Assembly (NCBI GenBank): GCA_043800555.1
Contig: JAZDMX010000002.1
Location: forward strand, 668 to 64,667
DNA: 64,000 bases
DNA from: Candidatus Omnitrophota bacterium
GTDB lineage: Bacteria; Omnitrophota; Gorgyraeia; Gygaellales; Profunditerraquicolaceae
Reading direction: 5' to 3'
Shown: in pieces, positions 19,106-48,487 of the stretch
Layout: every line of letters starts with the position of its first letter
Position numbering within the stretch: the stretch's first letter is position 1
Notes under the pieces: generated by a model
The model's database searches: none
What the model was told of the DNA's origin: nothing
The model's input: the letters and a program-made list of their open reading frames with translations, nothing else
Program-made: the position numbers and the translations under genes

Positions 19106-19214
19106 AAAAAGGGGGACGTTTCTACTTTTCCGGCAACTTGAAGCGTGAAAAAGGGGGACGTTTCTACTTTTCCGGCAACTTGAAGCGTGAAAAGTAGAAA
19201 CGTCCCCCTTTTTC
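19106..19214. repeat. Palindromic hairpin repeat, copy 1 (complex form: left arm + loop duplicated, then right arm)
   Basis: GAAAAAGGGGGACGTTTCTACTTTTC at 19106-19130 and again at 19147-19172. Loop CGGCAACTTGAAGCGT twice. Right arm GAAAAGTAGAAACGTCCCCCTTTTTC at 19189-19214. Confidence 0.9.
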
Positions 19215-19255
19215 CCACCAGAATGGACAATATTTTAAAAGTAGAAACGTCTCCC
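19215..19255. repeat. Left inverted-repeat module (CCACCAGAATGGACAATATT + degenerate hairpin half-arm AAAAGTAGAAACGTCTCCC) flanking the porin gene
   Basis: Reverse complement matches 20501-20542 (19/20 in the 20-mer; half-arm about 16/20). Contains a plus-strand ATG (19223) followed by the codons MDNILKVETSPS and a stop. Confidence 0.8.
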
Positions 19256-19304
19256 TCTTAGAATGGACATTAGTAAGAGAGTTTTAGGGCAGAATGGACA
19301 ATAA

Positions 19305-20534
19305 TCAGAAGCTAATCAGGAGCCTTAAGCCACAAACAACCTCAATATCAACCGTCTGGTCAGCATCGGGATTAGTAACTATTTGTATGCTCGGAGTCAA
19401 GGTGAGCGCGGGTTTTAAGCTGTAACTGTAATAGGCTTCGTAAATTGTCTCCGCCCTAGCGGCATCATTTACTTGCCGGTAATCATGGCCCATAATAGAT
19501 TGGGCGACTCCCGCGCCTAAACAATCAAATTTGCGTCCGGCAACAGGCTCGGTTATCTGGCCGCCGCAAGACCAGAAATATGCGATGTCGCTTACTTTCG
19601 GATCGGCAAAGCCGTAACGTAAAAACAAAGTTGCGCGCCCGGTTATTGCCTGGTCAAAGCTCAATCCCCAGCTTAGGCTATTCTCCTGGGTTTTATCGCT
19701 ATTGATACGGCTTGATTTCTTATGATTGATACTCAGGATAAACCGGTAATTACCTTTTAACGCGCCGAATTCAGAAGACAATCCTAATTCATTGATAAAG
19801 AAAGAACTGCTAAAAGCGTTGCTTAATCCTGTTTTTGTGGAACTTGCCTTGGCGCTAGAGGCTCCTGCCTGAAAATATACCCAATCATTAGGGGTAAAAC
19901 TCGCCATCGCCCCTATCCCCTTAGCCGGGAAAGGAAGGGCCAGATTGTTTACCAAAGCGCTGGATAGGAATTGCGTATCCGCGGAATTGGCAACATCATT
20001 ACAATCGAACCAATAGGATAAATCCAGTTTCCCCGCGGCAAGAAATACCTTCTGGCCGGCGAGCGTTTGCTCCAGATATAACACGGGTATGTAAAGATTG
20101 GCGTCATCCCCGGAATTATCATTAAAGCCGGAAAAGGTAGGCAGCAATTTATCCACGCCCTTACCCCTGTCCACTTCAAGCTCCGTAAATAACTCCGCGC
20201 CCTGCCAAAGCCTCTGCGCCGCTTCAATGTTCCAATACCAAACCCCTTGGCTCCTGCCTTTATCATTTGGGCCGTCCAATATCGCCTGCTGGGTATAATT
20301 CAGGAGGAAGGCAAACTTTGTCCCGTATTTTTCAGTTAAATTTCCCCGGTAATCGCTAAAATTATTGAACCAGTTTCTCTTAATTATTCCCTGGCTCCTG
20401 ATTTCTTCCTGCGCGGATATTTCCAGGGGCGTGGGAGCGGCGTTTGTATAGGAAGGAAACCCCAGCAGGAACATTAAGGCGAGACTCCCGTAAATGAAAA
20501 AGGGGGAGGTTTCTACTTTTAAGATATTGTCCAT
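19305..20534 (-). CDS. OprB-family (carbohydrate-selective) porin-like outer-membrane beta-barrel protein
   Basis: 409-aa ORF ending in a C-terminal Phe (…GLRLLISF), the typical OMP beta-signal. The LTEKYGTKFAFLLNYTQQAILDG region resembles the OprB family signature. The N-terminal 13 codons (MDNILKVETSPFF) are encoded by the repeat module. An alternative start at M21 (20474) has a GGGAG Shine-Dalgarno-like motif about 10 nt upstream but would leave only a 12-aa signal peptide. Confidence 0.6.
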   Translation of the reverse strand: MDNILKVETSPFFIYGSLALMFLLGFPSYTNAAPTPLEISAQEEIRSQGIIKRNWFNNFSDYRGNLTEKYGTKFAFLLNYTQQAILDGPNDKGRSQGVWYWNIEAAQRLWQGAELFTELEVDRGKGVDKLLPTFSGFNDNSGDDANLYIPVLYLEQTLAGQKVFLAAGKLDLSYWFDCNDVANSADTQFLSSALVNNLALPFPAKGIGAMASFTPNDWVYFQAGASSAKASSTKTGLSNAFSSSFFINELGLSSEFGALKGNYRFILSINHKKSSRINSDKTQENSLSWGLSFDQAITGRATLFLRYGFADPKVSDIAYFWSCGGQITEPVAGRKFDCLGAGVAQSIMGHDYRQVNDAARAETIYEAYYSYSLKPALTLTPSIQIVTNPDADQTVDIEVVCGLRLLISF

Positions 20535-20542
20535 TCTGGTGG
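20496..20542. repeat. Right inverted-repeat module (degenerate hairpin half-arm GAAAAAGGGGGAGGTTTCTACTTTT + AAGATATTGTCCATTCTGGTGG), inverted partner of 19215-19255; overlaps the porin start codon
   Basis: Sequence identity to the reverse complement of 19215-19255. The ATG of the porin ORF (20532-20534) lies inside it. Confidence 0.8.
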
Positions 20543-20638
20543 GAAAAAGGGGGACGTTTCTACTTTTCCGGCAGTCAGGTTTGAGAAAAGTAGAAACGTC
20601 CCCCTTTTTCCGCGGAAAAGTAGAAACGTCCCCGTTTT
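20543..20638. repeat. Palindromic hairpin repeat, copy 2 (left arm, loop CGGCAGTCAGGTTTGA, right arm, plus a second tandem right arm)
   Basis: Perfect 24-bp arms at 20543-20568 and 20585-20610; extra right arm GAAAAGTAGAAACGTCCCCGTTTT at 20615-20638. Confidence 0.9.
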
Positions 20639-20654
20639 CGCCATTTTCGTTACA

Positions 20655-21515
20655 TTAGAAACCCGGGACCATCTTGCCCTGGGTAAACTGCAGGAATATG
20701 GGCCCGCCGATGATGATGCCGATTACCGGCATTATAAAAAAGATAAGCGGGAGCAGTATCTTAATCGGCGCCTGTAACGCTATTCTTTCCCCCCGGTGAA
20801 ACCTTTGGGCGCGGGCGTCGTCGGAAAGTATCGTAAAAACTTCGGCAACAGGCGAACCCATCCTCTCCGCCTGGATAATAGTCTGCGCGAAAGAGCTCAT
20901 TTCAGGGATATCCAGCCTGCTTGACATATCTTTTAAAGCCTGGATGCGGGACTTACCCCATTTTATCTCTTCCAGGACAAGGCTGAATTCTTCGTTGATG
21001 GGGGTAGGCGGGGTTTTATCAATCACCCATTTTATGGCGCTGGAGAAATCCAGCCCGGCTTCGATACAAAGGCCCAATAAATCCACTGTTTCCGGAAGCC
21101 GGCGGACGATTTGATATTTGCGCTTGGAAATTTTTTGTTTCAAATAGAAATCCGGAGCTATATAACCGATCGCCATAGCAACTAAAATATACAGGGGCTC
21201 AACCTTGCCCAAGGCAGCCGGAGTAATCAAGGCTAAGCCCGCCATAGCCAGTATTTTCAAGTTAAAGAACCCTTCGGGGCTGATATTCAAATGGCTGGCT
21301 TCGGTTAATTTCTTCAGTTTAGGGTATAGCTTTATCTGCTCCAGAAACGCCCGGGTAGGCAGGATGCGCGACAATACGGCTACAGGGCTAGCGCGCTTGG
21401 CAGGCGGATTCAACCTGGGCAGGCGCCGGATCCGATTGCCCTGCTGGCTGATAACCAGGCTCCAAACAATTAGCCCCGCGGAAAGAATCAGAAAAAGATA
21501 GATAAGTATGCCCAT
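20655..21515 (-). CDS. tadC: Tad pilus inner-membrane platform protein, TadC-like (T2SS F-domain)
   Basis: 286 aa; multiple TM segments; T2SSF-like core (…VDLLGLCIEAGLDFSSAI…). Second of two adjacent paralogs in operon order, so the B/C assignment is by position only. Confidence 0.7.
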   Translation of the reverse strand: MGILIYLFLILSAGLIVWSLVISQQGNRIRRLPRLNPPAKRASPVAVLSRILPTRAFLEQIKLYPKLKKLTEASHLNISPEGFFNLKILAMAGLALITPAALGKVEPLYILVAMAIGYIAPDFYLKQKISKRKYQIVRRLPETVDLLGLCIEAGLDFSSAIKWVIDKTPPTPINEEFSLVLEEIKWGKSRIQALKDMSSRLDIPEMSSFAQTIIQAERMGSPVAEVFTILSDDARAQRFHRGERIALQAPIKILLPLIFFIMPVIGIIIGGPIFLQFTQGKMVPGF

Positions 21516-21516
21516 A

Positions 21517-22363
21517 TTAAATAGTTATTGCGCTGAATTTACGGATTAAAAACATCCCGATAACCTGCAATAATACCGCTAAAACCAAAAGCATCCTGCC
21601 TATGTCGCTGCCAAGCATTATATCAAAATGATGCCTGTTCACCGAAACCACCCAAAGCACAAACAAAATCGGCAAAAATGACATAATCGCCCCCTGCATC
21701 CTCCCTTGAAGAGTCAGGGTTTTAACGCTCTCTTTAAGCTTGCGGTTATCCCTGATAGTGGTGGTCAGGCGGCTAAAAACTTTTGTCAGCTCGCCACCTG
21801 TTTCCCGTGACACTAACAGAGCGTTAACAACCAGGCTCAACTCCTCGATATTCATCCTTTGGTTCAACCTTACGAGGCTATCCTCAAAAGGTATGCCCAT
21901 TTTGTTCTCTTTAAGCAGCAGGCTCAACTCCTGGCTCATCGGAGGCGGCATCTCCTCCACTAAAACCTCAAACCCCTGCAACAGGCTTAAGCCGCCCTTT
22001 AAACAACTGGAAAGCATGCTGATGGCGTCTAGGAGCTGGGCATTAAATTTTTGTTTATTCCGGGCCAGGCGCATTTTAAGGATAAAATTAGGTATGACCA
22101 AGCCTACTGCCCCGGCGATTATCGCGGGGATTAAAGATTGGGAAAGAAAATAACCCGTTATGCTAAAAACTACCGGCAGGATGAAATAAAGCCGGGCAAT
22201 TGCCTGCGGGCTTTTATCATAAAACACCTGGTCCATCTGTTTTATGACCTTAGCTTCTTTTGCCGCATGCCAGGATTCTACCCGCTTCAAAAATACCGGG
22301 AAAATGCTTATGGCGATTAAAACCACCGAACCCATTATCAACAAACTGAATAATATTATCATG
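21517..22363 (-). CDS. tadB: Tad pilus inner-membrane platform protein, TadB-like (T2SS F-domain)
   Basis: The ORF track extends to 22497, but a real start at MIILFSLLIMG (ATG 22361-22363) avoids overlap with the flp gene. T2SSF-like core (…LLDAISMLSSCLKGGLSLLQGFEVL…). Confidence 0.7.
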
Positions 22364-22381
22364 TTTTCTTCGCGTTTTGGC

Positions 22382-22564
22382 TTACGGTGAAACAGGGGTA
22401 TATTGCTCTCCTGAACCAATAGCATCCCCTGCCTGCTTAAGCCTCTCCTGCAAACCCCTTTTGTAATAAGCGCCCATAGCGATAAATACGGCGGCAAGCA
22501 AAGTTACCACCGCTATATATTCTATAACAGTTTGGGCTTTATTGGTTATTTTTTTTGTTGCCAT
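22382..22564 (-). CDS. flp: Flp-family pilin (60 aa)
   Basis: MATKKITNKAQTVIEYIAVVTLLAAVFIAMGAYYKRGLQERL: Flp motif G/A-x-x-x-x-EY followed by a hydrophobic segment and the conserved YxKRGxQ also seen in the tandem pilin array. Confidence 0.8.
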   Translation of the reverse strand: MATKKITNKAQTVIEYIAVVTLLAAVFIAMGAYYKRGLQERLKQAGDAIGSGEQYTPVSP

Positions 22565-23363
22565 TATAGGTAACCAAAATAGTGGTCTTACTGGAAAATT
22601 GATCCAACGCTTGCCCTTCCAAAGCCAACTTCTTGACCATGGCCTCGCTCATCCCGAATACGCCCTGGTATAGCCTTATTATGCAAATTTCTCCGTTTGT
22701 TTTGCGGAATGTCAAGCTGGCCTTGCTGGATGCAACCTTGATTTCTTCGCCGGCTATCTTTTTTGCCAGGGCCTTGCGGCATTCAGGGCAATCGGCAGTA
22801 TTTGCCGTTACCGGATCCTCGCCGGACAAACTCCAGCCATAGTTAAGCATGGCGGACTTGAAAAAGAAAATCACATCATCAATACTCTTAGTTGTCTCGT
22901 AAGCAGCCGAAGCCCCTGTCGGCCGATCCAAAAGGAAATCCTGTTTAGCCCCGGGGTAAACCGGCATAAAACCCAATTTATCCGGCGTCTCCTTACCGGA
23001 AGCCAGTATATCCTCTTTGGTAGGTATTTTAGTAGTGGTAACGCTAAAGCGCGTTTTGTTATCCCGGCGGCGTATCCGCGGGTTAACCGCGACAATAACC
23101 ATATACCCGTCTTTTAAATATACCCCGCTAGACTGTTCAGCCCAGCCTTCACGAAGCAATTTTTTCTTATACATCGCAATGATATCGTTTCCGGAAAGAG
23201 CTGTCATATAAACCTGGATACGGGTCCGAGTCAAACCCGCGTCTACGTCCTTATCCATGGTCTTAACAGCGTCGGAAGGCAAGGGAAGGACTAATTCTTC
23301 GGCTTGCAGCAAATTAAAATACCCGCATATAAAAAATAAAAGCGCGCAGATAATTATCCTCAT
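22539..23363 (-). CDS. Hypothetical secreted protein (signal peptide MRIIICALLFFICGYFNLLQA) within the Tad locus
   Basis: ORF 22539..23384; start trimmed to the Met that begins a signal peptide; contains CPEC. No recognisable family. Confidence 0.5.
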   Translation of the reverse strand: MRIIICALLFFICGYFNLLQAEELVLPLPSDAVKTMDKDVDAGLTRTRIQVYMTALSGNDIIAMYKKKLLREGWAEQSSGVYLKDGYMVIVAVNPRIRRRDNKTRFSVTTTKIPTKEDILASGKETPDKLGFMPVYPGAKQDFLLDRPTGASAAYETTKSIDDVIFFFKSAMLNYGWSLSGEDPVTANTADCPECRKALAKKIAGEEIKVASSKASLTFRKTNGEICIIRLYQGVFGMSEAMVKKLALEGQALDQFSSKTTILVTYNGNKKNNQ

Positions 23364-23405
23364 CTCATCTCCTTTTCCAAACAAACGGCTGCTTTTTTGT
23401 TTTCC

Positions 23406-24962
23406 CTATCGTGTCCCCGTTATCCTGGAGTCATAGGTATATTCGAAATTCCCCACGTCTCCGCCGTCAAAGCTGGCCTCGCTGCTGCTGGTTATCTCCG
23501 GATAACTCGTAGCTATAATCCCGGAGCTGGCCCCGGGGTGCTTCTGGGTTGTCGTACATATAGTATGCCAATACGGGAATATTACGTCGGCTATCCTGAC
23601 AATCATCATGTCGCTAACGGCCTGGCAAGGAACACAGGAGGCAAGTTCTCCGCTTATGTCGTTACGGCAAGGCTTGCAATCCAGGCAATTATATACGGAC
23701 TCACTGCCATCAGGCCCCCAATCATCATATACTTCACGATTATTCTCTTGCACCAGCACTATCGAATTTATCCCTCCGGCTGATACAATAGCCGACAGAA
23801 TCGCGGCAATAGAACTGGAAATTAACATTTCCGTTGTTCTCATGGCTACGATTGCCGCGCATAACGCGACAGCGGCGATACATACCAGGCAGTCGTAAGA
23901 CTTGCAATTCTCGCATATGGTGGTCAGGACCGCTGTAACAGCGCTCAAGGCAAAAATTATCGTAAGCGTCGCGCCTTGCGCCCCCAATGTAGTAGCTGCG
24001 CTGCTTAAGGCTTGGGAAATGCCTGGCGCTGCGCCGATATTATAATCCAGTAAACTGCCAATCTCTGAATAGCTGCCTACGGTATGCTGGACTTCATAAG
24101 AAGTTATTTTTGGCAAGTCTAAAGTAGCGCTAACCGTATGCTCCTGGCTGGGCCGGGGATTAAGAGGCTCACTGGAAGGTTTGTCCTGCCAACTGTAAAC
24201 CCCCTCCTTGGCCGGCCGGGAGAGTATCCAGTCGTCAGTCCCGCCGCTATCAGTGGTAAACGACGACATCCAAAGGCTAAACGCGTCATTCTGCTCATTA
24301 GAAAGCTTGGAAGGTATGCAGCTATTTGAAAAGGCGTAAGTAAAGCCGGCGTTATACGAGCTTTCATAAGCGCTATCCATAGATACTACGCTCTCGCAAA
24401 AAGCTTCCCATTGAGCGTCGTGGAATGAATCTGTTATTGACCGCATTGTCTTAGCGTTCTGTAGGTAAGCTTCGACTTCAACATAAGCCTCTTCAAGCGT
24501 GATAGAGGCAGCCAAAGCTAAACCCACGGCAACTAAAAAAGAGGCCCAGACAACCTCGCAAGACTCGCTGGAACTCGAAGTAGCTAAAAGAGTGGCCAGC
24601 GCGGTTGCCGATAGGCTACCGGCTACCGCAAGCGTTACTGCGGTGCTTAAATGCTGGTCTGATTCCTGATAAGTAGTCTCGAATTCACCGTCATAGGTAA
24701 TATCAAAATTATCCTCCAGGTTTGCGTTCGCCTGCGCGAGGTTATTTAAGCCTGTGGCATAAACCGAAGCTGCCGCAAGCGCTCCGGCGTCAGCGGCATT
24801 GGCAGAGCAGGTTTTGTCCAAAGAAACCCTGCCGATATTAATTGTGGCGATCGCGGCAATCAACAGGATAACCAGCACCACCAGCAAAAGAGGGGTGATT
24901 TGGCCGGCTAAATTATCCTTTTTGCCAAACTGCTTGTTCTGGCTGAACCAGGAAAAAAACAC
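23406..24962 (-). CDS. TadG-like pilus-associated protein (N-terminal pseudopilin-like hydrophobic segment, Cys-rich C-terminus)
   Basis: 518 aa; N-term …LAGQITPLLLVVLVILLIAAIATINIGRVS…; C-terminal region has many Cys (CENCKSYDCLVC…CLDCKPCRND…CVPCQ). Position next to TadE/F-like genes. Confidence 0.55.
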   Translation of the reverse strand: MFFSWFSQNKQFGKKDNLAGQITPLLLVVLVILLIAAIATINIGRVSLDKTCSANAADAGALAAASVYATGLNNLAQANANLEDNFDITYDGEFETTYQESDQHLSTAVTLAVAGSLSATALATLLATSSSSESCEVVWASFLVAVGLALAASITLEEAYVEVEAYLQNAKTMRSITDSFHDAQWEAFCESVVSMDSAYESSYNAGFTYAFSNSCIPSKLSNEQNDAFSLWMSSFTTDSGGTDDWILSRPAKEGVYSWQDKPSSEPLNPRPSQEHTVSATLDLPKITSYEVQHTVGSYSEIGSLLDYNIGAAPGISQALSSAATTLGAQGATLTIIFALSAVTAVLTTICENCKSYDCLVCIAAVALCAAIVAMRTTEMLISSSIAAILSAIVSAGGINSIVLVQENNREVYDDWGPDGSESVYNCLDCKPCRNDISGELASCVPCQAVSDMMIVRIADVIFPYWHTICTTTQKHPGASSGIIATSYPEITSSSEASFDGGDVGNFEYTYDSRITGTR

Positions 24963-24972
24963 GTCCGCTCCC

Positions 24973-25922: not shown

Positions 25923-25937
25923 CGCTTAATCACCCCA

Positions 25938-30353: not shown

Positions 30354-30417
30354 GAAAAGGGGGACGTTTCTACTTTTCCGGCAGCGGGATCGAGAAAAGT
30401 AGAAACGTCCCCCTTTT
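30354..30417. repeat. Palindromic hairpin repeat, copy 3 (loop CGGCAGCGGGATCGA)
   Basis: Perfect 24-bp arms flanking a 15-nt loop; between the DUF192 gene stop and the HTH gene start. Confidence 0.9.
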
Positions 30418-30434
30418 CTGAAACGTTTCCCTTT

Positions 30435-30797
30435 TCACTCTAAGGTAATGTGATCGCCCACGGCTGTAAAGCTATCTTTGATTGCCCCGGAAGGAAGTTC
30501 AATGACATAATTGGCTTGGAAATATATCCTGGTGAATTTAAACGGCTTAATACCGGAAAGGGTTTGAATGACCTTATTATCCCTGCCCATAAATAAGGCA
30601 TCAATGGAAAATCGCATAAAGAACGTGTGGATGGAATTACAGGGTTTAATTATAAGGGCTTGGCTTTTATTAAAACTTTTCTTTCCTAACAGGCCTTTGA
30701 TCCTCTTAAGCGGGGAACCGGCAATAAAAACGTCGCCGGCTACAACTGTATTCCGGGTTTTATTAATCAGGCGCATAGAGTTAATAGGAAGATACAA
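30435..30797 (-). CDS. DUF192 (COG1430) family protein
   Basis: 120 aa; …IIKPCNSIHTFFMRFSIDALFMGRDNKVIQ… matches the conserved core of DUF192. Confidence 0.6.
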   Translation of the reverse strand: MYLPINSMRLINKTRNTVVAGDVFIAGSPLKRIKGLLGKKSFNKSQALIIKPCNSIHTFFMRFSIDALFMGRDNKVIQTLSGIKPFKFTRIYFQANYVIELPSGAIKDSFTAVGDHITLE

Positions 30798-36833: not shown

Positions 36834-36906
36834 GAAAAAAAGGGGGACGTTTCTACTTTTCTCGAGCCCGATTGCTGGAAAAGTGGAAACGTCCCCCTTT
36901 TTTTCA
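36834..36906. repeat. Palindromic hairpin repeat, copy 4 (loop TCGAGCCCGATTGCTG, opposite loop orientation; one mismatch in the right arm)
   Basis: GAAAAAAAGGGGGACGTTTCTACTTTTC … GAAAAGTGGAAACGTCCCCCTTTTTTTC. Confidence 0.9.
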
Positions 36907-36980: not shown

Positions 36981-37055
36981 TAGCCCCAACCGGATTTGAA
37001 CCGGTGTTTATTGGCTGAGAACCAAGCGTCCTAGGCCGGGCTAGACGATGGGGCC
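36981..37055 (-). tRNA. tRNA-Glu (anticodon CUC)
   Basis: Reverse complement GGCCCCAUCGUCUAGCCCGGCCUAGGACGCUUGGUUCUCAGCCAAUAAACACCGGUUCAAAUCCGGUUGGGGCUA folds as a cloverleaf (acceptor GGCCCCA/UGGGGCU, T-loop UUCAAAU, anticodon loop UUCUCAG). D-arm resembles bacterial tRNA-Glu. No encoded CCA. Confidence 0.8.
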
Positions 37056-40842: not shown

Positions 40843-40843
40843 C

Positions 40844-40908
40844 AAACAGGGACAGCAACCGTTTTCCAAGCAGGCGATAATTTGAGAAACGGTTGCTGTC
40901 CCTGTTTA
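40844..40908. terminator. Bidirectional rho-independent terminator (21-bp perfect inverted repeat, T-run on the plus strand)
   Basis: AAACAGGGACAGCAACCGTTT at 40844-40864, a 23-nt loop, AAACGGTTGCTGTCCCTGTTT at 40888-40908, then TAATTT. Lies between the convergent RR gene and tRNA-Leu. Confidence 0.7.
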
Positions 40909-40914
40909 ATTTAC

Positions 40915-41000
40915 TGGTGCGCGAGGGGGGAGTTGAACCCCCAAGCCTTGCGGCACAAGCCCCTCATGCTTGCGTGTCTGCCATTCCACCACCCGCGCGC
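40915..41000 (-). tRNA. tRNA-Leu (anticodon GAG), type II with long variable arm
   Basis: Reverse complement GCGCGCGGGUGGUGGAAUGGCAGACACGCAAGCAUGAGGGGCUUGUGCCGCAAGGCUUGGGGGUUCAACUCCCCCCUCGCGCACCA. Anticodon stem CAAGC/GCUUG, loop AUGAGGG (U33, GAG, G37). T-arm GGGGG-UUCAACU-CCCCC; CCA encoded. Overall similarity to bacterial tRNA-Leu. Confidence 0.75.
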
Positions 41001-41067
41001 AATCTGCGTCGACCCGTGATTATAACAATAGCCGGATAAAATATCAAGTAAAAATGAGCTCGAAAAC

Positions 41068-41134
41068 GGAAAAGGGGGACGTTTCTACTTTTCCGGCACG
41101 AGGCTTGCGAAAAGTAGAAACGTCCCCCTTTTCC
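41068..41134. repeat. Palindromic hairpin repeat, copy 5 (loop CGGCACGAGGCTTGC)
   Basis: Perfect arms GGAAAAGGGGGACGTTTCTACTTTTC / GAAAAGTAGAAACGTCCCCCTTTTCC, directly downstream of the antiporter-like gene stop (41136). Confidence 0.9.
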
Positions 41135-41135
41135 T

Positions 41136-42278
41136 TCACAAATTGAAGCGTTCCCTGTTCAGTTGAAAGAATACCCGGAAAGCGTTCCTGTTCTCGAAAT
41201 TCTTGACCAGCCTGATTGTTTCGATTAACGCCCAGGCCCCATACACCCAGATGATCTCTGCGCGTATGGCCGGAAAGATGAATTGAGCCAGCCATAACAA
41301 AAACAGGGCTGCGGCCTCAAAAAACTTAAAATCCATGCTTGCTAAAAACAAGAAGCCCAGATAAGACTGGATAATCGTAAGGAGTATCTCCACCTTTTGC
41401 TGGTCGTCGAAAATAACGCTCGCCACCCTGCCCATGCCGAAAGAATAAATAAACGGAATAAGCGCCACCAGGATGGTCCACTGGTTGATGGAGGAAGAAA
41501 CAAAATTGGCCAGCGCCATAGGCGCCTTATTTACCTTTCTGGCCCAATAGAACGCCGAAAGCTTCTCGGGGAACTCGCTTAAGAACGGCGCCACCCACTG
41601 CACAAATACGAATTGCGATATGCCGGCCGAAACAGCCAAAGCAAGCATGGAGTCTAAAAACGGGTGGGCTGCGAAATAAAGGACCGTGCCTCCTGCAACA
41701 AAGAATAATACGACCCAGGCTATATTCAACGGGCGTTTTTGCCGCATTACGTATTTAGGTATCCGGCCCAAATCGCCGACATCCTCCTGTTCATGCGGAG
41801 GCATCTTCGATAAAAGATACAAATAGCCGAAATAAATCGCGCTGAGGATTAAACCGTCAAAAATATTCAGGGAACTCTTAAAATAGATAACCAGAAAATA
41901 GAGCAAAGCCGGCAAAAGCGAAAGGACGGCTATGGAATGTTCATCCTCCAGCTCTATGCTCCACGGATTTTTACCGCCGGGTTTACCCCTCCTGTGGAAA
42001 AAAGCGACAAAATAAACCATCGGCCAGCCTAAACCGACGAATAGCCTTAAAGAGCCTGTATAATTAGCGGTGATTAGATGTAATTTGGAAGGGTCTCTGG
42101 CCGCGGTAAAAGCAATTACTCCTTCTACCGCAAACTCCGGAAGGGTTTGTATCCATGCCAAAACAGCCAAAGCCAGGCCTTGCGAAATAAAGAATTGCCC
42201 GCACTCGGCTGCCCAGGAAATAAGCAGGGCGGCTAAGATTATCGCGGGAAACGTCCATAGGGCGCTTAAAGCTTCCAT
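41136..42278 (-). CDS. Polytopic membrane protein, Na+/Ca2+ (cation) antiporter-like
   Basis: 380 aa, about 10 hydrophobic segments with an internal duplication pattern; family assignment tentative. Confidence 0.4.
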   Translation of the reverse strand: MEALSALWTFPAIILAALLISWAAECGQFFISQGLALAVLAWIQTLPEFAVEGVIAFTAARDPSKLHLITANYTGSLRLFVGLGWPMVYFVAFFHRRGKPGGKNPWSIELEDEHSIAVLSLLPALLYFLVIYFKSSLNIFDGLILSAIYFGYLYLLSKMPPHEQEDVGDLGRIPKYVMRQKRPLNIAWVVLFFVAGGTVLYFAAHPFLDSMLALAVSAGISQFVFVQWVAPFLSEFPEKLSAFYWARKVNKAPMALANFVSSSINQWTILVALIPFIYSFGMGRVASVIFDDQQKVEILLTIIQSYLGFLFLASMDFKFFEAAALFLLWLAQFIFPAIRAEIIWVYGAWALIETIRLVKNFENRNAFRVFFQLNRERFNL

Positions 42279-42295
42279 ATAATAAAGGGGAACCC

Positions 42296-42652
42296 TTATT
42301 CGTTAGCGTCGTTTAAATCGCTAAGATTTCTTATTTTTAAACCGCTTAAATCATCTTTATAATAGGTAATCGAAACAGGGTCTCCCTGCTCGACATCGAA
42401 GAGTAAGATAGATTCTGTGCCCCGGGTAAGCTCTGAATCACCGGTAACCTTAAGGGCAATCTCATCCGAGTCCCCGGTATAGGGATCGGTATAACGCACG
42501 CTCAATACCGATTTTATCCAGTCTACGGAAGAGACTGTCCCGGAAATAGATTTATCGCCGCTTTCATCCGCTAAAGCCGCGGGAGCAATTATAAAGCAGA
42601 AAATCAGGAAAATAATGCTTATTTTATTCATTTTTCTCCTTTCTACGGGCAT
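42296..42652 (-). CDS. Small secreted hypothetical protein
   Basis: Signal peptide MNKISIIFLIFCFIIAPAALA (start probably at the internal Met); no family recognised. Confidence 0.4.
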   Translation of the reverse strand: MPVERRKMNKISIIFLIFCFIIAPAALADESGDKSISGTVSSVDWIKSVLSVRYTDPYTGDSDEIALKVTGDSELTRGTESILLFDVEQGDPVSITYYKDDLSGLKIRNLSDLNDANE

Positions 42653-42827
42653 TCATCTCCGGCGGCATTCCGAGCCCTATTTGCTTACGGCAACAAAAAA
42701 CAGGCTGCTTCCTCCATATTACTGCCGGCAACTAACATAAAACCGGCGGAACCCATTATACCCCGCCCACCCCAAAAAAGCGCCCACTTACAAACTCAAT
42801 AGTATGATACAATAAATAAGGTGAATA

Positions 42828-43949: not shown

Positions 43950-43968
43950 TTTTACGCGCCGTTAAACT

Positions 43969-45390
43969 TTATTCCGCAATGCTACGTATGGATATGACCC
44001 GCTCAAGCAAAGAACCTTTCCGGGAACCCTCGCCTAAAGCAAGATCGCTGACCACCGCCCGGTTTAGCTTATGGAATACCTCTTTGCCCAACCCTTGTTT
44101 TTGCCTATAACCGTAAATTTCGTGTATCACATACGGACGGTTGCCAAACATCCCCAGATATAAAAGGATATGGCCTTTTAACTGTAAGATTGTTACTCCC
44201 CCGATAGCCTCTTTAGCTAAAATACGCGTTTTCAACTCATTACTCGTCTTCTGCTCAAAGTTGCCTAAAAGCTTCCCGGACCTGCCTTGCTCCGCGGAAT
44301 CCCTCGGCAAGACTATTCCCACCGTAGAAAAAACCTCCTGGATAAAACCCGAACAGTCCTGTTCGCCCCCCTTGCCTCCCCAGCCATAAGGGGCGCCTAA
44401 AAGTTTAAAAGCCTGTTCTATGGTATTACGCGGAGTATACTCCAAATAACCCGGGTTTATCTCTGCCTTCCTTAAATAGGCGGCCTGCTCAACGAACTTC
44501 CCCTCTTTTTGCTGCGAAGGGATAAGGACCGTGGCTGTTTCGGATGCAATCCCTATCAAAGGAAATTTCGCGCCCATCCTGACATAGCCGATACGGCGCG
44601 TTAATGCGGGGTCTTGGAAAATACCGGCCTTGGCGCTAACCACTACGGCAAACGGCGATCTCCCCAGGAAAGCCTTGAAATCGCTGAATTCGCAAAAGGC
44701 AACCTTATCTTTTTTGACCCATCCGGAACTTGTCGGAGAATATACATATACCCAAAGCCCGTCCCTGCTTTCGTGTAAGGCCACCAAAGGAGTGCCGATA
44801 TCTAAAGAACTGTTTTGGAGCTCGTCAAATGCGGCATCTGCCGGAAGTACGGTCAAAATATCCTCAGTCGGAAGCAAACGCTGGTCAGCGTAATGGCGGA
44901 TAAACCCGTAACGCGCATTAATCCTGGAAGGAATTGCCGCAACACTAATTTGCTTTTCCATCTCCTGATAAAAAGGCTCCGCCGCAATTATCGAATCTTT
45001 TGCATAAAGCTTCTGTTTGACAAATCCAGCGAACTCTTTTCTTAAGGAAGAGGCCAATTCTTCTCCGGAACATACCGGGCCTGTTTTTAACAAGTCTTTT
45101 ATAAGCCCAAGCTCTTTTTCTGTCCTGGAATTAAACGCTGCGATACCGGATTGGCTTAAGATAATTTTATCTGCGGAATCGTTCCGGCTGATCCAGAAAC
45201 CAGGCTCTTGTATATGCCTGTTGGCGCAAGGGGCTGTATCGCATCCTGTTGCGGATAATAAGAAAATTGCCAGTAGAAAAAAACAGGGGCGAAAAAAGGG
45301 GGACGTTTCTACTTTTCTCGAGCCCGATTGCCAGAAAAGTAGAAACGTCCCCCTTTTTTCTGAAACACTCCTATTTCCGCGCATTTTCAA
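43969..45390 (-). CDS. NlpC/P60 (C40) cell-wall peptidase lipoprotein with N-terminal SH3-like region; 5' end overlaps hairpin repeat copy 6
   Basis: C-terminal catalytic block …GWGGKGGEQDCSGFIQEVF…HILLYLG…YVIHE… (Cys/His/His). Lipobox-like …LLSATGC. The first about 30 codons (…EKRGTFLLFWQSGSRKVETSPFF) are a translation of the hairpin repeat, so the exact start is uncertain. Confidence 0.7.
   Translation of the reverse strand: MKMRGNRSVSEKRGTFLLFWQSGSRKVETSPFFRPCFFLLAIFLLSATGCDTAPCANRHIQEPGFWISRNDSADKIILSQSGIAAFNSRTEKELGLIKDLLKTGPVCSGEELASSLRKEFAGFVKQKLYAKDSIIAAEPFYQEMEKQISVAAIPSRINARYGFIRHYADQRLLPTEDILTVLPADAAFDELQNSSLDIGTPLVALHESRDGLWVYVYSPTSSGWVKKDKVAFCEFSDFKAFLGRSPFAVVVSAKAGIFQDPALTRRIGYVRMGAKFPLIGIASETATVLIPSQQKEGKFVEQAAYLRKAEINPGYLEYTPRNTIEQAFKLLGAPYGWGGKGGEQDCSGFIQEVFSTVGIVLPRDSAEQGRSGKLLGNFEQKTSNELKTRILAKEAIGGVTILQLKGHILLYLGMFGNRPYVIHEIYGYRQKQGLGKEVFHKLNRAVVSDLALGEGSRKGSLLERVISIRSIAE
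45291..45359. repeat. Palindromic hairpin repeat, copy 6 (loop TCGAGCCCGATTGCCA, same orientation as copy 4)
   Basis: GAAAAAAGGGGGACGTTTCTACTTTTC … GAAAAGTAGAAACGTCCCCCTTTTTT. Confidence 0.9.
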
Positions 45391-45634
45391 CCAATTTGCC
45401 CTGAATCAATGCTAATTTTTTCTTTCTCGCCCAACCTTTGATCAGGGACTCGCGTTTCAGGGCTTCATTCCTACTGCCGCTCGGTTCAGAATAAAGAAGC
45501 TTACGGGCCTTAAATGCGCGGGTAAATTTTCCGCCCTTGCCGGATTTGTGTTCTTGGAATCTTCGCCGGAGATTATCGGTAATGCCGGTATAAAGACTTT
45601 CGTTTCTGCATTCAAGGATATAGACATACCACAT
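45371..45634 (-). CDS. GIY-YIG nuclease-family protein (small, YhbQ-like)
   Basis: 87 aa; MWYVYILECRNESLYTGITDNLRRRFQEHKSG… (GIY-YIG motif: YVYIL…YTGIT…R…E). Confidence 0.7.
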   Translation of the reverse strand: MWYVYILECRNESLYTGITDNLRRRFQEHKSGKGGKFTRAFKARKLLYSEPSGSRNEALKRESLIKGWARKKKLALIQGKLVENARK

Positions 45635-45924
45635 TTCGGTGTATCCTTCGACTCAGTCGCCCTTCGGGCTCCTTCGCTCAGGATGGTTCGCCTCGCTTCT
45701 TAAAGACTCGCTTCAGCTCACTCATATGGCTTGTGGTGAGCGAGCGAAGCGAGTCGAACCACTGCCCAAAGTTGTCGCCAGCCGAGTTTCGCAACCTCAA
45801 TATTGCCAAATAGTTATCAAAATGACTATCCGCTGCGGTAAAGGCGGATTTATTTATCTTGGCGATCCGTCAATCGACAATTAAAATGACAACCTAAATG
45901 GCAATCAAGCTCTATGTTTAGTGC

Positions 45925-46365
45925 TTATTTTCTACGCCCTACTAGTGAAAGTTTCTCTATATATTTATCAATGTTTTTTTCTTCGCCAAAAATATCTGCC
46001 CTAATAGATTTAATAAGAGATTTTAATAGCCTATCATGTTCAATAACCCACTCTTCAGACCATCTGGGGAATTTATCTTCGGCACCCTGGCGTACAAAAC
46101 TGTGAAATTCCATTAAATCTTTTACTACCTGAGGACTGGCAATAACCAATAAAAAATTGATGGATTCTGATAGTTTCTCTTGCGCTTTATCATTTTTGTT
46201 ATCAATAGCGACGTCACTTAATGATTTAAGAAAAGACTTATAGTATTCCTCTTTTAATCTCCTATCTTCTGTTTTTAGTTGAAGTCTCTTTGTGAAATAA
46301 AAAGATAGGGATGCTGTTATTACCGATGCAAATAACCCAATTGTAGCTACTATAATTGGCTCCAC
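45925..46365 (-). CDS. Hypothetical membrane-anchored protein
   Basis: 146 aa; single N-terminal TM; no family recognised. Confidence 0.35.
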   Translation of the reverse strand: MEPIIVATIGLFASVITASLSFYFTKRLQLKTEDRRLKEEYYKSFLKSLSDVAIDNKNDKAQEKLSESINFLLVIASPQVVKDLMEFHSFVRQGAEDKFPRWSEEWVIEHDRLLKSLIKSIRADIFGEEKNIDKYIEKLSLVGRRK

Positions 46366-46430
46366 TTGTTTTTCTTCCTTATGCTAATATTTGTTCGCCT
46401 GAGCCTCAAGATCGGCTGAAAAATTGCGCC

Positions 46431-46841
46431 TTAGATCTTCCCGATCGTCTCCCTTACCCATTGATAAACTCTTGTGGCCACTTTAACTATCTCATCCGCA
46501 TCTGATTTATTAACACTGCGGCACTCGTATTGGACAAGGTTTTTGCGGGCGATTACTTTGCGCAACTGCTTGGACTTTTCTTCCGCGCCATCAAAAGGCA
46601 GACCAGCTACCAAATCGCAAACGTCAAAATGATCCTGCGAAACCGAACGTACTCCTTTTCCATAGACACAAATCGCATCTGCAGAAGAAATCACACATTG
46701 AACAGCCAATGTCGCTGCCGCATTCCAGTTTGAGGCATTAAACGCAACCAGCATCTGTTCATAATTATCGGCGGCTTTCTTTAAATACTCCGAAGCTGTA
46801 GATCTGTCCTCTTGCCTGACTTTTATTTCGCGGGCTGTCAT
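46431..46841 (-). CDS. HEPN-domain protein (putative toxin of HEPN/MNT pair)
   Basis: 136 aa; R-x4-6-H motif RSVSQDH; immediately downstream of and co-oriented with the MNT gene. Confidence 0.55.
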   Translation of the reverse strand: MTAREIKVRQEDRSTASEYLKKAADNYEQMLVAFNASNWNAAATLAVQCVISSADAICVYGKGVRSVSQDHFDVCDLVAGLPFDGAEEKSKQLRKVIARKNLVQYECRSVNKSDADEIVKVATRVYQWVRETIGKI

Positions 46842-46843
46842 AC

Positions 46844-47473
46844 CTAAATCTCCAACGGTTCTTTGCCGTATAAAACGGAATAGGATTTCATTAAAGTTGA
46901 AACCGGCGGCTGATTCTTTTTAAGCCGCTCTTTAAATTCAACAGCTGACTTGATATATGCATCCATCTGAACGCCAAAATATGCCTTAAATCTGGGAGCT
47001 ATTTCAGAAAGAAAAACATTTTCAACTGAATGAAGATCCGTAGCCCTAAGGACCACCGCCGCAATATCAATATCGCTTCCTTTTTTGGCTGTCTCGGTTT
47101 GCATGCTTCCGTAAAGGATTAACGATATTATTTTCGTTCTAATCTTAGTTCGCTTGAATTCTTTTAAAAGAAAATCGCGGATTTCGTTCTTAACGTTGCT
47201 TTCAGCGGCAAACATCGGACGAATAATTTTTTGAACAATCCGATCGTCATCATTTAAAGCATAAATATGCTGTTTTCCAATAATATCTAATTTTAAGATG
47301 TTACGGCTATGCAGATCTTTTAATGAGTCATGCGTAGAAGGCGCTGAATAACCAATGAGCTTAGCAATCTGGCGACCTGTGGCCTTGAAGTTCTTCCGAG
47401 CAGTAAAAAGCCGCAAAATTGCTACCTTGGAAGGAGAATCGATAATTTCTTCAATTTGAAATGTTTTAACCAT
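46844..47473 (-). CDS. Minimal nucleotidyltransferase (MNT) with N-terminal winged-HTH (putative antitoxin)
   Basis: 209 aa; NTase signature LYGSMQTETAKKGSDIDIAAV (GS…D.D); N-terminal HTH-like region. Confidence 0.6.
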   Translation of the reverse strand: MVKTFQIEEIIDSPSKVAILRLFTARKNFKATGRQIAKLIGYSAPSTHDSLKDLHSRNILKLDIIGKQHIYALNDDDRIVQKIIRPMFAAESNVKNEIRDFLLKEFKRTKIRTKIISLILYGSMQTETAKKGSDIDIAAVVLRATDLHSVENVFLSEIAPRFKAYFGVQMDAYIKSAVEFKERLKKNQPPVSTLMKSYSVLYGKEPLEI

Positions 47474-47490
47474 AATATAAACCTAACATA

Positions 47491-47508
47491 TGTAAGGTTA
47501 ACCTTACA
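47491..47508. promoter_or_regulatory. Perfect 18-bp palindrome TGTAAGGTTAACCTTACA, candidate operator upstream of the MNT/HEPN operon
   Basis: Located 18 nt upstream of the MNT start codon (47473). Confidence 0.5.
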
Positions 47509-47686
47509 CTGAATATAACACGTTTTATATAATTGTCAAGGAGATTAGCTAATGAAAGCGCCCTACAGAAGTCTGTAAGGCGCTTGTGGCTACTGCACCG
47601 CTTGGCGGTGATTCGGCCAGTTGTCAACATTGGCTGCCCCTACTGGACGAAATATGCAACTGGGTATATTCTCTTGAAACAGTAAA

Positions 47687-48250
47687 TTACTTCGATGAAA
47701 GTATATCCTTGCCCAATTTAACGGCTACTTCCGCTGTCTGAACTAATAGATTTTGTTCGAGTTGATTAAATTGCCCAGAATAAACTATTTCTTTGAGCTT
47801 TAAAGATTTTTCATCTAATTTATCATCGTAGTGAGCACCGCCCTCTTTCTCCGCCACCATTCTTATAACTTCATTTGGAGTATAAATCATACTACCCAAT
47901 CTTACAAAAGGAGAAAATAACCAATCATTTAATTCGTATCTTTGATTAGCAGGAGAAAAAGGCAATAATCCAATAAGAAAGAATGAAATCTTTAAAACTG
48001 TAAATTCATCTGTATCAGAACTTCTTGTAGAGGGTCCATAACAGAATAACAACACATTTCTCTCTTTAGCTAAGTTTATTAAAAGAGGACTGAGACTACG
48101 GCTTCCTGAGCATATTAGCGCTCTTAGTTGGGATGAAATAACTTTAAAATATTTGAGGTCTCCAGATTTTACTTTTTGCAAGGCATCTTCTAACAAAGAT
48201 ATTGATTCGTTTAATTCGTTCAATCTTGTATCAAGACTTTTGCTTTTCAT
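47687..48250 (-). CDS. Hypothetical protein (187 aa), accessory-region gene
   Basis: ORF only; no recognised motif. Confidence 0.35.
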   Translation of the reverse strand: MKSKSLDTRLNELNESISLLEDALQKVKSGDLKYFKVISSQLRALICSGSRSLSPLLINLAKERNVLLFCYGPSTRSSDTDEFTVLKISFFLIGLLPFSPANQRYELNDWLFSPFVRLGSMIYTPNEVIRMVAEKEGGAHYDDKLDEKSLKLKEIVYSGQFNQLEQNLLVQTAEVAVKLGKDILSSK

Positions 48251-48329
48251 CTGATTACTATTTATCCCTTAAACAGAGGTTTATTAAAATTGTTGTAACT
48301 CGTTATAATGCAAATGTTTAATTATTTAA

Positions 48330-48401
48330 CTGCCCCGCATGGAATCGAACCATGATAGTCAGATCCAGAATCTGAAGTCCTACCGATTAGACGACAGGGC
48401 A
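48330..48401 (-). tRNA. tRNA-Gln (anticodon CUG)
   Basis: Reverse complement UGCCCUGUCGUCUAAUCGGUAGGACUUCAGAUUCUGGAUCUGACUAUCAUGGUUCGAUUCCAUGCGGGGCAG. Anticodon stem UCAGA/UCUGA, loop UUCUGGA; T-loop UUCGAUU. Confidence 0.75.
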
Positions 48402-48429
48402 AAATTATTATAGAGGGGCGAAAATGTGG

Positions 48430-48487
48430 GAAACGGGGACGTTTCTACTTTTCCGGCAGCCAGGCTCGAGAAAAGTAGAAACGTCCC
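48430..48487. repeat. Palindromic hairpin repeat, copy 7 (slightly degenerate; loop CGGCAGCCAGGCTCGA)
   Basis: GAAACGGGGACGTTTCTACTTTTC … GAAAAGTAGAAACGTCCCC. Confidence 0.85.

Follow-up and report, generated by a model that had tools for sequence, protein, structure and literature searches.

To our knowledge, work on REP/REPIN-RAYT systems has been almost confined to Proteobacteria, and the largest RAYT group (group 1, or subclass 2.1) has, as far as we know, been described as lacking REP populations. Published surveys have characterized related elements and enzymes under several names: (i) TIRtrons, whose TIRs bear the motif GGGGWSAS and also occur, in moderate abundance, as dimers or clusters (Di Nocera, De Gregorio & Rocco 2013, PMC3733652); (ii) TnpAY1 subclass 2.1, recognised by an NHVH-type HuH motif, W[EQ] and YIELNP in a protein of about 238 aa, with no REP-like sequences around its genes (Quentin et al. 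2018, PMC6006769); and (iii) RAYT group 1, whose flanking 16-mers occur in only about 12 copies (Bertels et al. 2017, PMC5581495).

Here we describe a hairpin population, dense and clearly delimited, that is linked to RAYT group 1 in an uncultured phylum; it centres on a 64,000-nt stretch of DNA (the window) taken from a 65,257-bp contig of a Candidatus Omnitrophota MAG. We reason, with a probability of roughly 0.8, that these hairpins are non-autonomous and REPIN-like: each would be a dimer of TIRYT terminal repeats that is mobilised in trans and that probably also serves as a bidirectional terminator.

Hairpin copies in the window

A scan of the whole window with the arm sequence AAAAGGGGGACGTTTCTACTTTTC, allowing up to three mismatches, returned 18 arm matches on the two strands (0 expected, from 100 shuffles), grouped into seven intergenic sites that all fall within 19107-48493, a density of seven hairpin sites in 30 kb. 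Five sites are simple arm dimers and two are clusters bearing extra arms. An earlier note, made from the sequence, had described just such a family of seven intergenic hairpins; both the family and its intergenic placement are borne out, with corrections of detail. The last copy ends at 48493 rather than 48487, and the perfect 24-bp arms attributed to every copy are found in five (19149-19212, 20545-20608, 30355-30417, 41070-41132 and 45294-45357; arms of 24-28 bp), the copy at 36838-36901 having one mismatch and that at 48430-48493 arms of 22 bp. What had been read as two loop types is a single homologous type throughout, CGGCA..GG..TCGA, 15-16 nt long, and the five-to-two split in its orientation stands.

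The cluster downstream of oprB (19107-19212) opens with a plus-strand arm (19107-19130) and an 18-nt copy of the loop, followed by a full hairpin (arm 19149-19172, loop 19173-19188, arm 19189-19212). It represents a tandem duplication with a 42-nt arm-plus-loop unit, and its predicted fold reaches -57.6 kcal/mol. Adjoining it (19213-19259) are a 23-nt spacer, TCCCACCAGAATGGACAATATTT, and a degenerate minus-strand arm with three mismatches (19236-19259). The second cluster, in the gap between the T2SSF gene and oprB (20498-20638), comprises a degenerate plus-strand arm (20498-20521), a 23-nt spacer (20522-20544), an inner hairpin (20545-20608) and, after a 6-nt spacer, an outer minus-strand arm (20615-20638), with a predicted nested fold of -73.3 kcal/mol (z -10.3). 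Local duplication of an arm plus loop had been proposed at both clusters: at 19107-19188 it is genuine, and 20585-20638 proves to be an extra arm after the 6-nt spacer. The degenerate arms at 19236-19259 and 20498-20521 had been overlooked; with them, both clusters become nested double hairpins, and a 71-bp inverted repeat is seen to bracket oprB. Its left copy (19189-19212 together with 19213-19259) and its mirror copy (20498-20568) differ by four mismatches, as read from the sequence.

The copy at 30355-30417 has 24-bp perfect arms (26 counting flanks) and a 15-nt loop, lies 18 nt past the stop of a DUF192 gene, folds at -46 to -48 kcal/mol on each strand (z about -8 to -9), and is followed closely by a partial arm-like motif, GAAACGTTTCCCTTTT (30420-30435). 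That at 36838-36901, with its single arm mismatch and a loop in reverse orientation, is located 80 nt downstream of tRNA-Glu (36981-37055, minus strand) and upstream of a PpiC/SurA-like gene. Perfect arms characterize the copy at 41070-41132, which abuts the stop of a Na/Ca-exchanger gene (41136-42278, minus strand) and lies upstream of tRNA-Leu (40915-40998, minus strand) and its promoter, as well as that at 45294-45357, where they extend to 28 bp around a reversed loop, upstream of an NlpC/P60 gene. The diverged copy at 48430-48493, with two changes relative to the consensus in its 22-bp arms, has tRNA-Gln (48329-48402, minus strand) on one side and, on the other, a small lipoprotein ORF that follows gltX.

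Arms and loops differ sharply in conservation. Across the window copies, arms are 97% identical versus 65% for loops; in the five best copies all 10 arms are identical and the loops only 60% so; and variable columns number 4 of 24 in the arm versus 11 of 16 in the loop (Fisher p=0.002). Because the loops are homologous yet diverged, and neutral decay would erode arms and loops alike, the identity of the arms requires constraint or continuing homogenisation, and is not solely the mark of very recent spread. A single 24-nt arm contains no internal palindrome; the stem needs both arms.

Dispersal of the arm core and its association with a Y1 transposase

The arm core, GGGACG-N-TTC-N-A-N-TTT, is not private to the source genome. 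At least 114 stretches of GTDB representatives carry the two-arm hairpin pattern; the host genomes range from 27 to 68% in GC content and include Omnitrophota, Aminicenantes, Clostridia, Bacteroidaceae and Nitrospirae. For annotation purposes, the family accounts for a very common intergenic motif of Omnitrophota and Aminicenantes MAGs. The exact 19-mer arm of the window copies is absent from all GTDB representatives, and searches of plasmid and phage collections yielded nothing similar to the hairpins. In the family loci 331 of 367 core matches (90%) form convergent pairs, accompanied by some solo copies and tandem arrays, and identical or near-identical loops recur inside single MAGs in both orientations, in keeping with the hairpin being copied as a unit.

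In Omnitrophota and Aminicenantes loci the core is associated with one clade of Y1/HUH transposases, the only gene that the arms bound. All eight transposase genes checked (L066, L085, L048, L122, L123, L124, L125 and L127) are flanked on both sides by the core, inverted, with a shared geometry: the plus-strand core lies 55-70 nt before the ATG, and the minus-strand core overlaps the stop or lies just past it. The L066 ORF matches Pfam Y1_Tnp (50.5 bits) and, among NCBIfam models, scores best with REP_Tyr_transpos (65.8 bits, versus 18.9 bits for IS200); the closest PDB entry is 4ER8 (E. coli TnpA-REP), in a weak alignment (E=0.002) that spans the HUH and Y motifs. Homologs of the transposase number 1920, with a median length of 225 aa; YIELNP is present in 111 of 120 homologs and WQ in most, with NHxH appearing as NH[VILTP]H. 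Judged by these sequence features, the transposase is that of Quentin's subclass 2.1, Bertels' RAYT group 1 and Di Nocera's "TIRYT/TIRtron". Members of the clade are mostly on one contig each; L125 carries two Y1_Tnp genes 1 kb apart.

The locus has a counterpart in a relative with 84% identity in GltX (JAQUAP010000001.1, locus L127), which shows the order T2SSF, hairpin, Y1_Tnp, arm, OprB, hairpin and giant gene. The window is syntenic with it, but a 23-nt spacer stands in place of about 740 bp comprising a leader and the Y1 transposase. The relative's transposase site corresponds to the window's 20.5-kb hairpin cluster (20498-20638), its "empty" counterpart; the window has no transposase gene at this ancestral T2SSF/oprB site, where the nested arms alone remain. 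The exact coincidence of transposase and cluster makes this a new example of a known element type, not a new mechanism. The hairpin at 19107-19212 also has an ortholog in L127 (11997-12049). The hairpin at 45294-45357 is missing from the orthologous spacer of a second relative locus (L128), which at the position of 48430-48493 carries, by alignment, a conventional GC-stem/T-tract terminator. One copy in a relative lies within an operon and has no T-tract. Together these loci provide a natural pair, syntenic with and without the transposase, along with filled and empty sites.

These comparisons also bear on the wider claims of the earlier note. A repeat confined to the window, which it had allowed for, is at odds with the dispersal just described. 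Its observation that the window contains no RAYT-type gene holds: neither tblastn with 120 clade members nor an HMM search of the six-frame translation found a Y1 transposase or remnant there. The RAYT gene that it proposed to seek elsewhere is present in related genomes, and the presence/absence comparison that it suggested reveals polymorphism at orthologous sites, in both directions, between the window and its relatives. Its view of the family as REP/MITE-like is upheld as to a mobile repeat, by the transposase link and the site polymorphism, and revised as to type: these are TIR dimers (TIRtron/TIRYT, RAYT group 1) and not classical GTAG-tagged REPs.

Proposed mobilisation, terminator role and alternatives

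We propose that each hairpin is a head-to-head dimer of the TIR flanking a RAYT-related Y1 (HUH) tyrosine transposase. A full element ("TIRtron") has its arms about 750 bp apart, with the transposase gene in the interval; a hairpin has a 6-36-nt loop in place of the gene. The two arms may pair while the DNA is single-stranded, as on the lagging-strand template. A transposase acting in trans, encoded by a single gene elsewhere in the genome, would then recognise the stem sequence, that is the core, and would cut and rejoin the strand, so that the hairpin moves or is copied in its entirety and no target-site duplication arises. Dependence of recognition on stem sequence would keep the arms identical as the loops drift. 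A classical REP can pair with itself, which a single arm here cannot, and the enzyme may therefore recognise a substrate other than the one used by E. coli TnpA-REP; the 16-nt stem core offers a concrete substrate for the biochemistry of TIRYT enzymes. The copies in the window could be orphans.

The hairpins probably serve, in addition, to terminate transcription in both directions or to stabilise 3' ends, as suggested by their position, U-tracts and stability and by one replaced terminator; the earlier note had likewise proposed bidirectional termination. Copies lie a median of 17 nt past stop codons, and most have A- and T-runs flanking the base of a stable stem. Folding of the window stems gave -41 to -50 kcal/mol (z -6.6 to -9.4), and six of the seven window copies combine stem and U-tract on both strands, that at 48430-48493 having no clean T-run; both A-rich and T-rich flanks are present in 64 of 98 family copies (65%). 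Divergent spacers, where a terminator role makes less sense, hold 15 of 98 hairpins and show no depletion, and a simple terminator scan missed the hairpins, whose 24-28-bp stems and 15-nt loops are unusual among intrinsic terminators. Use by the host as terminators may help to retain the hairpins, and the family presents a case for studying the conversion of mobile hairpins into host terminators.

The same observations could be turned around, so that the hairpins would be host intrinsic terminators first, their identity kept by gene conversion or selection and the link with a transposase incidental. The short distance from stops, the 65% of copies with A-rich and T-rich flanks, the very stable stems and the conventional terminator at an orthologous position in a relative would all fit, as would an A-run that varies from 4 to 7 among copies yet is symmetric within any one copy. 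Termination, however, needs no stem sequence, yet the 16-nt core is kept over genomes of 27-68% GC and brackets eight of eight transposase genes in fixed geometry; some copies, moreover, have no T-tract, lie within operons or occupy divergent spacers, and loops recur in both orientations within genomes. We consider this account improbable. Alternatively, the genome may have lost the transposase and kept dead, functionless remnants of a TIRtron family. Such remnants would be expected to resemble the window in several respects: there is no transposase in it, even at the syntenic site, the exact 19-mer arm is found in no GTDB representative, and loop identity falls to 60-65%. Such decay would have struck arms and loops alike, contrary to the ten identical arms beside diverged loops, and the absence of the transposase pertains to the window only, the gene possibly lying elsewhere in the genome; simple relics are therefore an unlikely explanation.

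Still less probable, in our estimation, are classical MITEs, that is, internally deleted DDE-type IS elements moved by cut-and-paste on double-stranded DNA. Although 24-28-bp terminal inverted repeats, a short non-coding centre and scattering through intergenic DNA are features of such elements, the 142 copies checked showed no excess of 2-8 bp target-site duplications (counts were at or below random expectation), no DDE transposase recurred near copies in about 885 kb of loci, the arms bound only a Y1/HUH transposase gene, and plasmid and phage collections yielded nothing alike. Returning to the preferred reading of mobilised TIR dimers, we raise a broader version only tentatively, as rather doubtful: one TIRYT (RAYT group-1) clade and the hairpin might form a long-lived partnership spanning at least five phyla, with the same 16-nt core whatever the host GC, the hairpins of Omnitrophota having been recruited as routine bidirectional terminators that displace conventional ones and persist by host selection even after transposase loss, as at the window's syntenic site. 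If true, this would be the first REPIN-like population for a RAYT group held not to be REP-associated, and a rare near-universal REP sequence.

Comparison with known systems

Correia/NEMIS elements and inverted DUS pairs of Neisseria are likewise short inverted-repeat elements at gene ends, with a conserved arm, a variable centre and RNA hairpins able to terminate. Correia elements, however, are DDE-type MITEs with TA target duplications, whereas the hairpins here have no target-site duplication and are linked to a Y1 transposase; DUS are often solo and tied to a species-specific uptake receptor, whereas 90% of the cores here are paired. E. coli REP/BIME sequences and TnpA-REP (PDB 4ER8; Messing et al. 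2012, PMC3479197) share with this system the Y1/HUH fold family and the presence of extragenic palindromes past the 3' ends of genes, for which functions in termination and mRNA stability have been proposed, but the protein similarity is weak (E=0.002), the E. coli enzyme belongs to subclass 2.2, and the REPs of E. coli are imperfect hairpins, 35-40 nt long, that carry a GTAG guide at the 5' end. A classical REP, tagged by GTAG or CGTC, was considered and rejected for the arm, which has no palindrome of its own: the family consensus reads ATAG, and CGTC forms part of the stem rather than an unpaired tag at its foot.

REPINs of Pseudomonas and Enterobacteria (Bertels & Rainey 2011, PMC3116915) similarly consist of two conserved inverted units around a less conserved spacer, forming one long hairpin that is copied as a complete doublet; copies are intergenic, and all rely on a Y1 transposase that is usually present once and has the repeats on its flanks. 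The REP within a REPIN is an imperfect palindrome with a GTAG tag, whereas the arms here are not self-complementary and GTAG appears only in the source genome's variant (GAAAAGTAGAAAC); the transposase is of group 1 rather than groups 2 or 3, and the core is common to several phyla and not lineage-specific. With TIRtron/TIRYT elements the family shares a transposase of about 225-238 aa with NHxH, WQ and YIELNP (in related genomes, not the window), a gene set at a roughly fixed distance between long inverted repeats starting GGGG, TIR copies dispersed as singles, dimers and clusters, and a wide, patchy taxonomic range. It departs from them in a core, GGGGACG(G/T/C), that agrees with GGGGWSAS at seven of eight positions (G not A at position 7) and so marks a related but distinct TIR type; in hosts, comprising Omnitrophota, Aminicenantes and other uncultured lineages, that lie outside those surveys; and in the conservation of its 16-nt core across phyla, together with dense, mostly terminator-shaped dimers.

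The hairpin family and its gene setting

We searched both strands of the window with the 24-mer AAAAGGGGGACGTTTCTACTTTTC, allowing up to three mismatches, and obtained 18 matches, all confined to 19107-48493, against none expected by chance in 100 dinucleotide-preserving shuffles; the matches fall into seven sites, which an inverted-repeat scan also returned, the arms being 22-31 nt long and 14-16 nt apart. The family of seven near-identical palindromic hairpins that an earlier note had placed at 19106-48487 is thereby confirmed at every site, with the last copy reaching 48493. Two degenerate arms (19236-19259 and 20498-20521) had been overlooked, and with these both clusters flanking oprB become nested double hairpins. 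The arms are perfect in five copies, whose ten 24-nt arms are identical; the copy at 36838 has one arm mismatch, and that at 48430 shows the greatest divergence. Of the two loop types reported previously, two copies are indeed reversed, but once these are re-oriented all loops form a single homologous alignment, CGGCA..GG..TCGA. Pairwise identity is 65% among loops (60% in the five perfect-arm copies) versus 97% among all arms, and variable columns number 4 of 24 in the arms and 11 of 16 in the loops (Fisher p=0.002). At the base of the stem, the A/T run ranges from 4 to 7 among copies and is equal on both sides within a copy. All seven sites are intergenic, three adjoining tRNA genes (Glu, Leu, Gln).

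Nearly all genes of the window, which derives from a Candidatus Omnitrophota MAG, lie on the minus strand, and its GltX is 100% identical to a Candidatus Omnitrophota protein (P0121), the next 100 matches also being Omnitrophota. The gene of an OprB-family porin (oprB, 19305-20534) occupies the interval between the two hairpin clusters, with a Tad/T2SS operon upstream and, downstream, an ORF that exceeds 6238 aa and continues beyond the window start (3-18716, minus strand). This ORF is preceded by a c-di-GMP-I-GGC riboswitch (18873-18973, minus strand; 65 bits) and a near-consensus sigma-70-like promoter (19031-19004), and looks like a giant Omnitrophota gene controlled by c-di-GMP; its ortholog (>7593 aa) in L127, the related contig JAQUAP010000001.1, has weak Peptidase_C39 and GGDEF matches. 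An IS element at 19305-20534, considered for the inverted repeats of 45-71 bp around the ORF, was rejected, the ORF being the porin gene and no transposase. The 71-bp inverted repeat bracketing oprB (19189-19259 / 20498-20568; 4 mismatches) is laid out as arm, 23-nt spacer and degenerate arm. It takes in the oprB ATG (20534) with about the first 13 codons, and in the opposite copy this start recurs as a 12-codon stub; such a repeat could allow oprB inversion or reflect oprB capture. The 10-mer AGAATGGACA (TGTCCATTCT) occurs at 19220, 19260 and 19291 (plus strand), just 3' of oprB, and at 20528 (minus strand), within the spacer of the 20.5-kb cluster. The motif may be bound by a protein; the TGTCCATTCT triplet is kept in the relative (L127 11900-11990) though nearby non-coding DNA has diverged.

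A local Rfam scan and ARAGORN placed a tRNA-Leu(gag) at 40915-40998 (minus strand), overlooked by the whole-window Rfam gathering scan; an sRNA suspected in the 87-bp stretch 40912-40998, 97.7% identical to the relative, proved to be this tRNA. A hairpin unrelated to the repeat family (40844-40907; 26-bp arms, 92% complementary) lies between a GGDEF response-regulator gene (plus strand) and this tRNA gene (minus strand), and is probably a bidirectional terminator common to both.

Dispersal of the repeat among genomes

The exact 19-mer of the arm was found in none of 185,579 GTDB representative genomes and in no IMG/VR viral contig. Of the seven metagenome contigs that contain it, L002 and L004 alone truly belong to the family; the matches in L001, L003, L005, L006 and L007 seem to be chance or unrelated. 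Two metagenome contigs (38% and 65% GC) bear hairpins with nearly identical arms. A degenerate two-arm pattern (GGGACGNTTCNANTTT, a gap of 6-36 nt and the complement) retrieved at least 114 stretches from GTDB representatives, so that the repeat is not confined to the window, a restriction that the earlier note had named as telling against its reading. Among the matches listed, most are from Omnitrophota, further carriers being Aminicenantes, 'Planctomycetales' MAGs, Clostridia (including the isolate Lachnospiraceae P6A3), Anaerovoracaceae, Bacteroidaceae, Nitrospirae and Desantisbacteria, with GC contents from 27% to 68%. The same pattern gave no matches in viral contigs, and blastn against plasmids and phages returned chance matches only. 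Rfam gathering and E-value scans yielded nothing alike, only generic miRNA-hairpin noise, and the searchable literature returned irrelevant matches only for the repeat sequence itself.

The family consensus comprises an A-run, GGGGACG(G/T/C)TTCTATTTT, a variable loop and the complement. The window and 885 kb of retrieved loci together contain 367 matches to the core (the conserved part of the arm, GGGACG-N-TTC-N-A-N-TTT), of which 331 form convergent pairs; the remainder are short hairpins, tandem arm-plus-loop arrays (as at 19107), wide pairs or solo cores. A DNA-uptake sequence was ruled out by the pairing of 90% of cores and by the occurrence of the core across phyla; a dimeric DNA-binding site was likewise rejected, since arm spacing ranges from 6 to 36 nt. 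Likenesses to parS, CRISPR repeats and the tmRNA 5' end, which we take to be too weak, were dropped. Loops recur within single MAGs, some exactly and in both orientations (three times in L109, twice in L085, and in L033/L034, L072/L106 and L077/L100), and the whole hairpin is therefore the copied unit. In L049, from an Anaerovoracaceae MAG, solo cores GGGGACGGTTCTAAT at 1796, 3594, 4185 and 5719 (plus strand) and 6371 (minus strand) lie in sense orientation inside long ORFs. Translated in frame they give GDGSN, in two instances within a CCA-adding-enzyme-like ORF and in one within a 610-aa ORF, and they may represent single arms inserted in frame into genes, as reported for REPs.

A partner transposase and polymorphic sites

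All-versus-all clustering of 1166 flanking ORFs revealed no recurrent neighbour beyond a three-locus cluster of Y1 transposases, the others being ordinary and unrelated. On an Aminicenantes chromosome (L066), a 229-aa ORF lies between two inverted solo cores 775 bp apart. It matches Pfam Y1_Tnp (50.5 bits), and its best NCBIfam model is 'REP-associated tyrosine transposase' (65.8 bits, below the 80-bit cut-off), with IS200 at 18.9 bits; homologs of 55-60% identity adjoin hairpins in two Omnitrophota loci. The best solved-structure match of the transposase is E. coli TnpA-REP (4ER8), aligned over the HUH and Y...NP motifs. A large protein collection contained 1920 homologs at E<=1e-10, of about 225 aa, mostly on one contig each and annotated merely as 'transposase'. 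The clade carries the motifs NH[VILTP]H, WQ and YIELNP (111/120; median 225 aa). Five more members, from long contigs, have a core in (+) orientation 55-70 nt before the ATG and one in (-) orientation at the stop codon; the flanking arms in L122 and L124 are locally divergent variants. The RAYT gene that the earlier note proposed seeking outside the window is thus present in related genomes, bracketed by cores in all eight cases examined (Omnitrophota and Aminicenantes).

Several incidental features accompany these genes. The L085 transposase (3158-3853) has a C-terminus, ...KSGDVSIF, translated from the downstream arm, and the gene neighbouring that of L066 (4358-6658) ends ...KGDGSI within the upstream arm. 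From upstream arm to ATG, a conserved leader (…GTTAGATTT…ACGTCTATT(A/G)…AGGAGG…; L048, L085, L122-L125, L127) is kept though the transposases are only 55-60% identical, and is a candidate promoter, operator or second recognition element. Two Y1_Tnp genes 1 kb apart on one Omnitrophota contig (L125; 10001-10678 and 11681-12373) are separated by an RHH-Fic toxin-antitoxin-like pair, and in L123 an RHH-PIN pair directly follows the transposase; TIRtrons (such transposase genes with their flanking TIRs) may be associated with small addiction modules.

The contig JAQUAP010000001.1 (GCA_028687205.1; GltX 84% identical) is syntenic with the window from 21515 to 3 on the minus strand, in the order T2SSF, hairpin, T2SSF, hairpin, Y1 transposase, arm(-), OprB, three copies of TGTCCATTCT, hairpin and the giant gene (>7593 aa). 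In alignment A1 (72% mean column identity overall) the T2SSF 3' ends, oprB and a hairpin 3' of oprB are orthologous, oprB at about 70-75% nucleotide identity by eye, and the TGTCCATTCT triplet is conserved. Where the relative has some 740 bp of leader and transposase, the window has the 23-nt spacer 20522-20544, which makes the 20.5-kb cluster an empty TIRtron site. The arms of the orthologous hairpin 3' of oprB follow the variant of their own genome, TAC for the window and TAT for the relative, and the two loops are unrelated, a pattern that points to concerted evolution or copy turnover.

Presence/absence polymorphism, a check suggested earlier, was seen at orthologous sites of relatives in both directions. 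The relative has a hairpin between two T2SSF genes that in the window overlap (TAATATG; alignment A4). Conversely, L126 and L128, whose GltX is 84% and 88% identical to that of the window, lack the core throughout the 21 and 15 kb surrounding gltX, a region in which the window's copies at 48430 and 45294 lie; in the L128 gltX-tRNA-Gln spacer (alignment A2) an ordinary terminator, GCCGGG-TTTAT-CCCGGC-TTTTTT, stands at the position of the window's hairpin.

Terminator role and place among known systems

Folding energies of the window copies are -41 to -50 kcal/mol (z -6.6 to -9.4), whichever strand is folded, and U-tracts stand on both sides in six of the seven, the diverged copy at 48430 having no clean T-run. 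In the family as a whole the median distance from the facing stop codon to the start of the core is 17 nt, and 64 of 98 classifiable copies are bordered on both sides by A-rich and T-rich sequence. Folding, U-tracts, stop-codon distance, flanks and the replaced conventional terminator together support a terminator or 3'-end role, and the hairpins are probably bidirectional terminators or 3'-end protectors, as judged from fold and position. We keep to this qualified wording because the stems are atypical (24-28 bp, with 15-nt loops), divergent spacers hold 15 of the 98 copies, and one copy in the relative lies inside an operon and lacks a T-tract. A simple terminator scan with a loop limit of 8 nt, which did not score the hairpins, gave counts not above shuffles.

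The motif set NH[VILTP]H / WQ / YIELNP is tabulated for TnpAY1 subclass 2.1, which is equated with RAYT group 1 of Bertels and with the 'TIRYT' (TIR-associated Y1/HUH tyrosine transposase) of Di Nocera et al., and for which no REP-like sequences were found (Quentin et al., PMC6006769). TIRtrons comprise RAYT-like genes with long TIRs at similar distances, many with GGGGWSAS, and 'moderately abundant' TIR families occur as singles, dimers or clusters (Di Nocera et al., PMC3733652). Group 1 is the most widely distributed RAYT group (21 classes, including Clostridia), with signs of horizontal transfer and flanking 16-mers in only about 12 genomic copies (Bertels et al., PMC5581495). The clade matches this subclass in motifs and length, and we therefore assign the hairpins to a TIR-dimer family of a TIRtron. 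Core-bracketed transposases, the syntenic locus and site polymorphism support the earlier REP/MITE-like reading in this form: the window hairpins are REPIN-like TIR dimers of a TIRYT (RAYT group 1) element. They would very probably have been mobilised in trans on single-stranded DNA and, probably, co-opted as host terminators.

The hairpin core GGGGACG(G/T/C) agrees with GGGGWSAS of TIRtrons at 7 of 8 positions. Unlike classical REPs, the single arms are non-palindromic and have no unpaired GTAG or CGTC tag, and on these grounds we do not class them as such. No 2-8-bp target-site duplications flank 142 copies, as expected of HUH/Y1 transposition and unlike DDE-type MITEs. New with respect to these systems are the host phylum, the conservation of a 16-nt core across phyla, the natural pairs of filled and empty sites, and the population density reached in a RAYT group regarded as not REP-associated.
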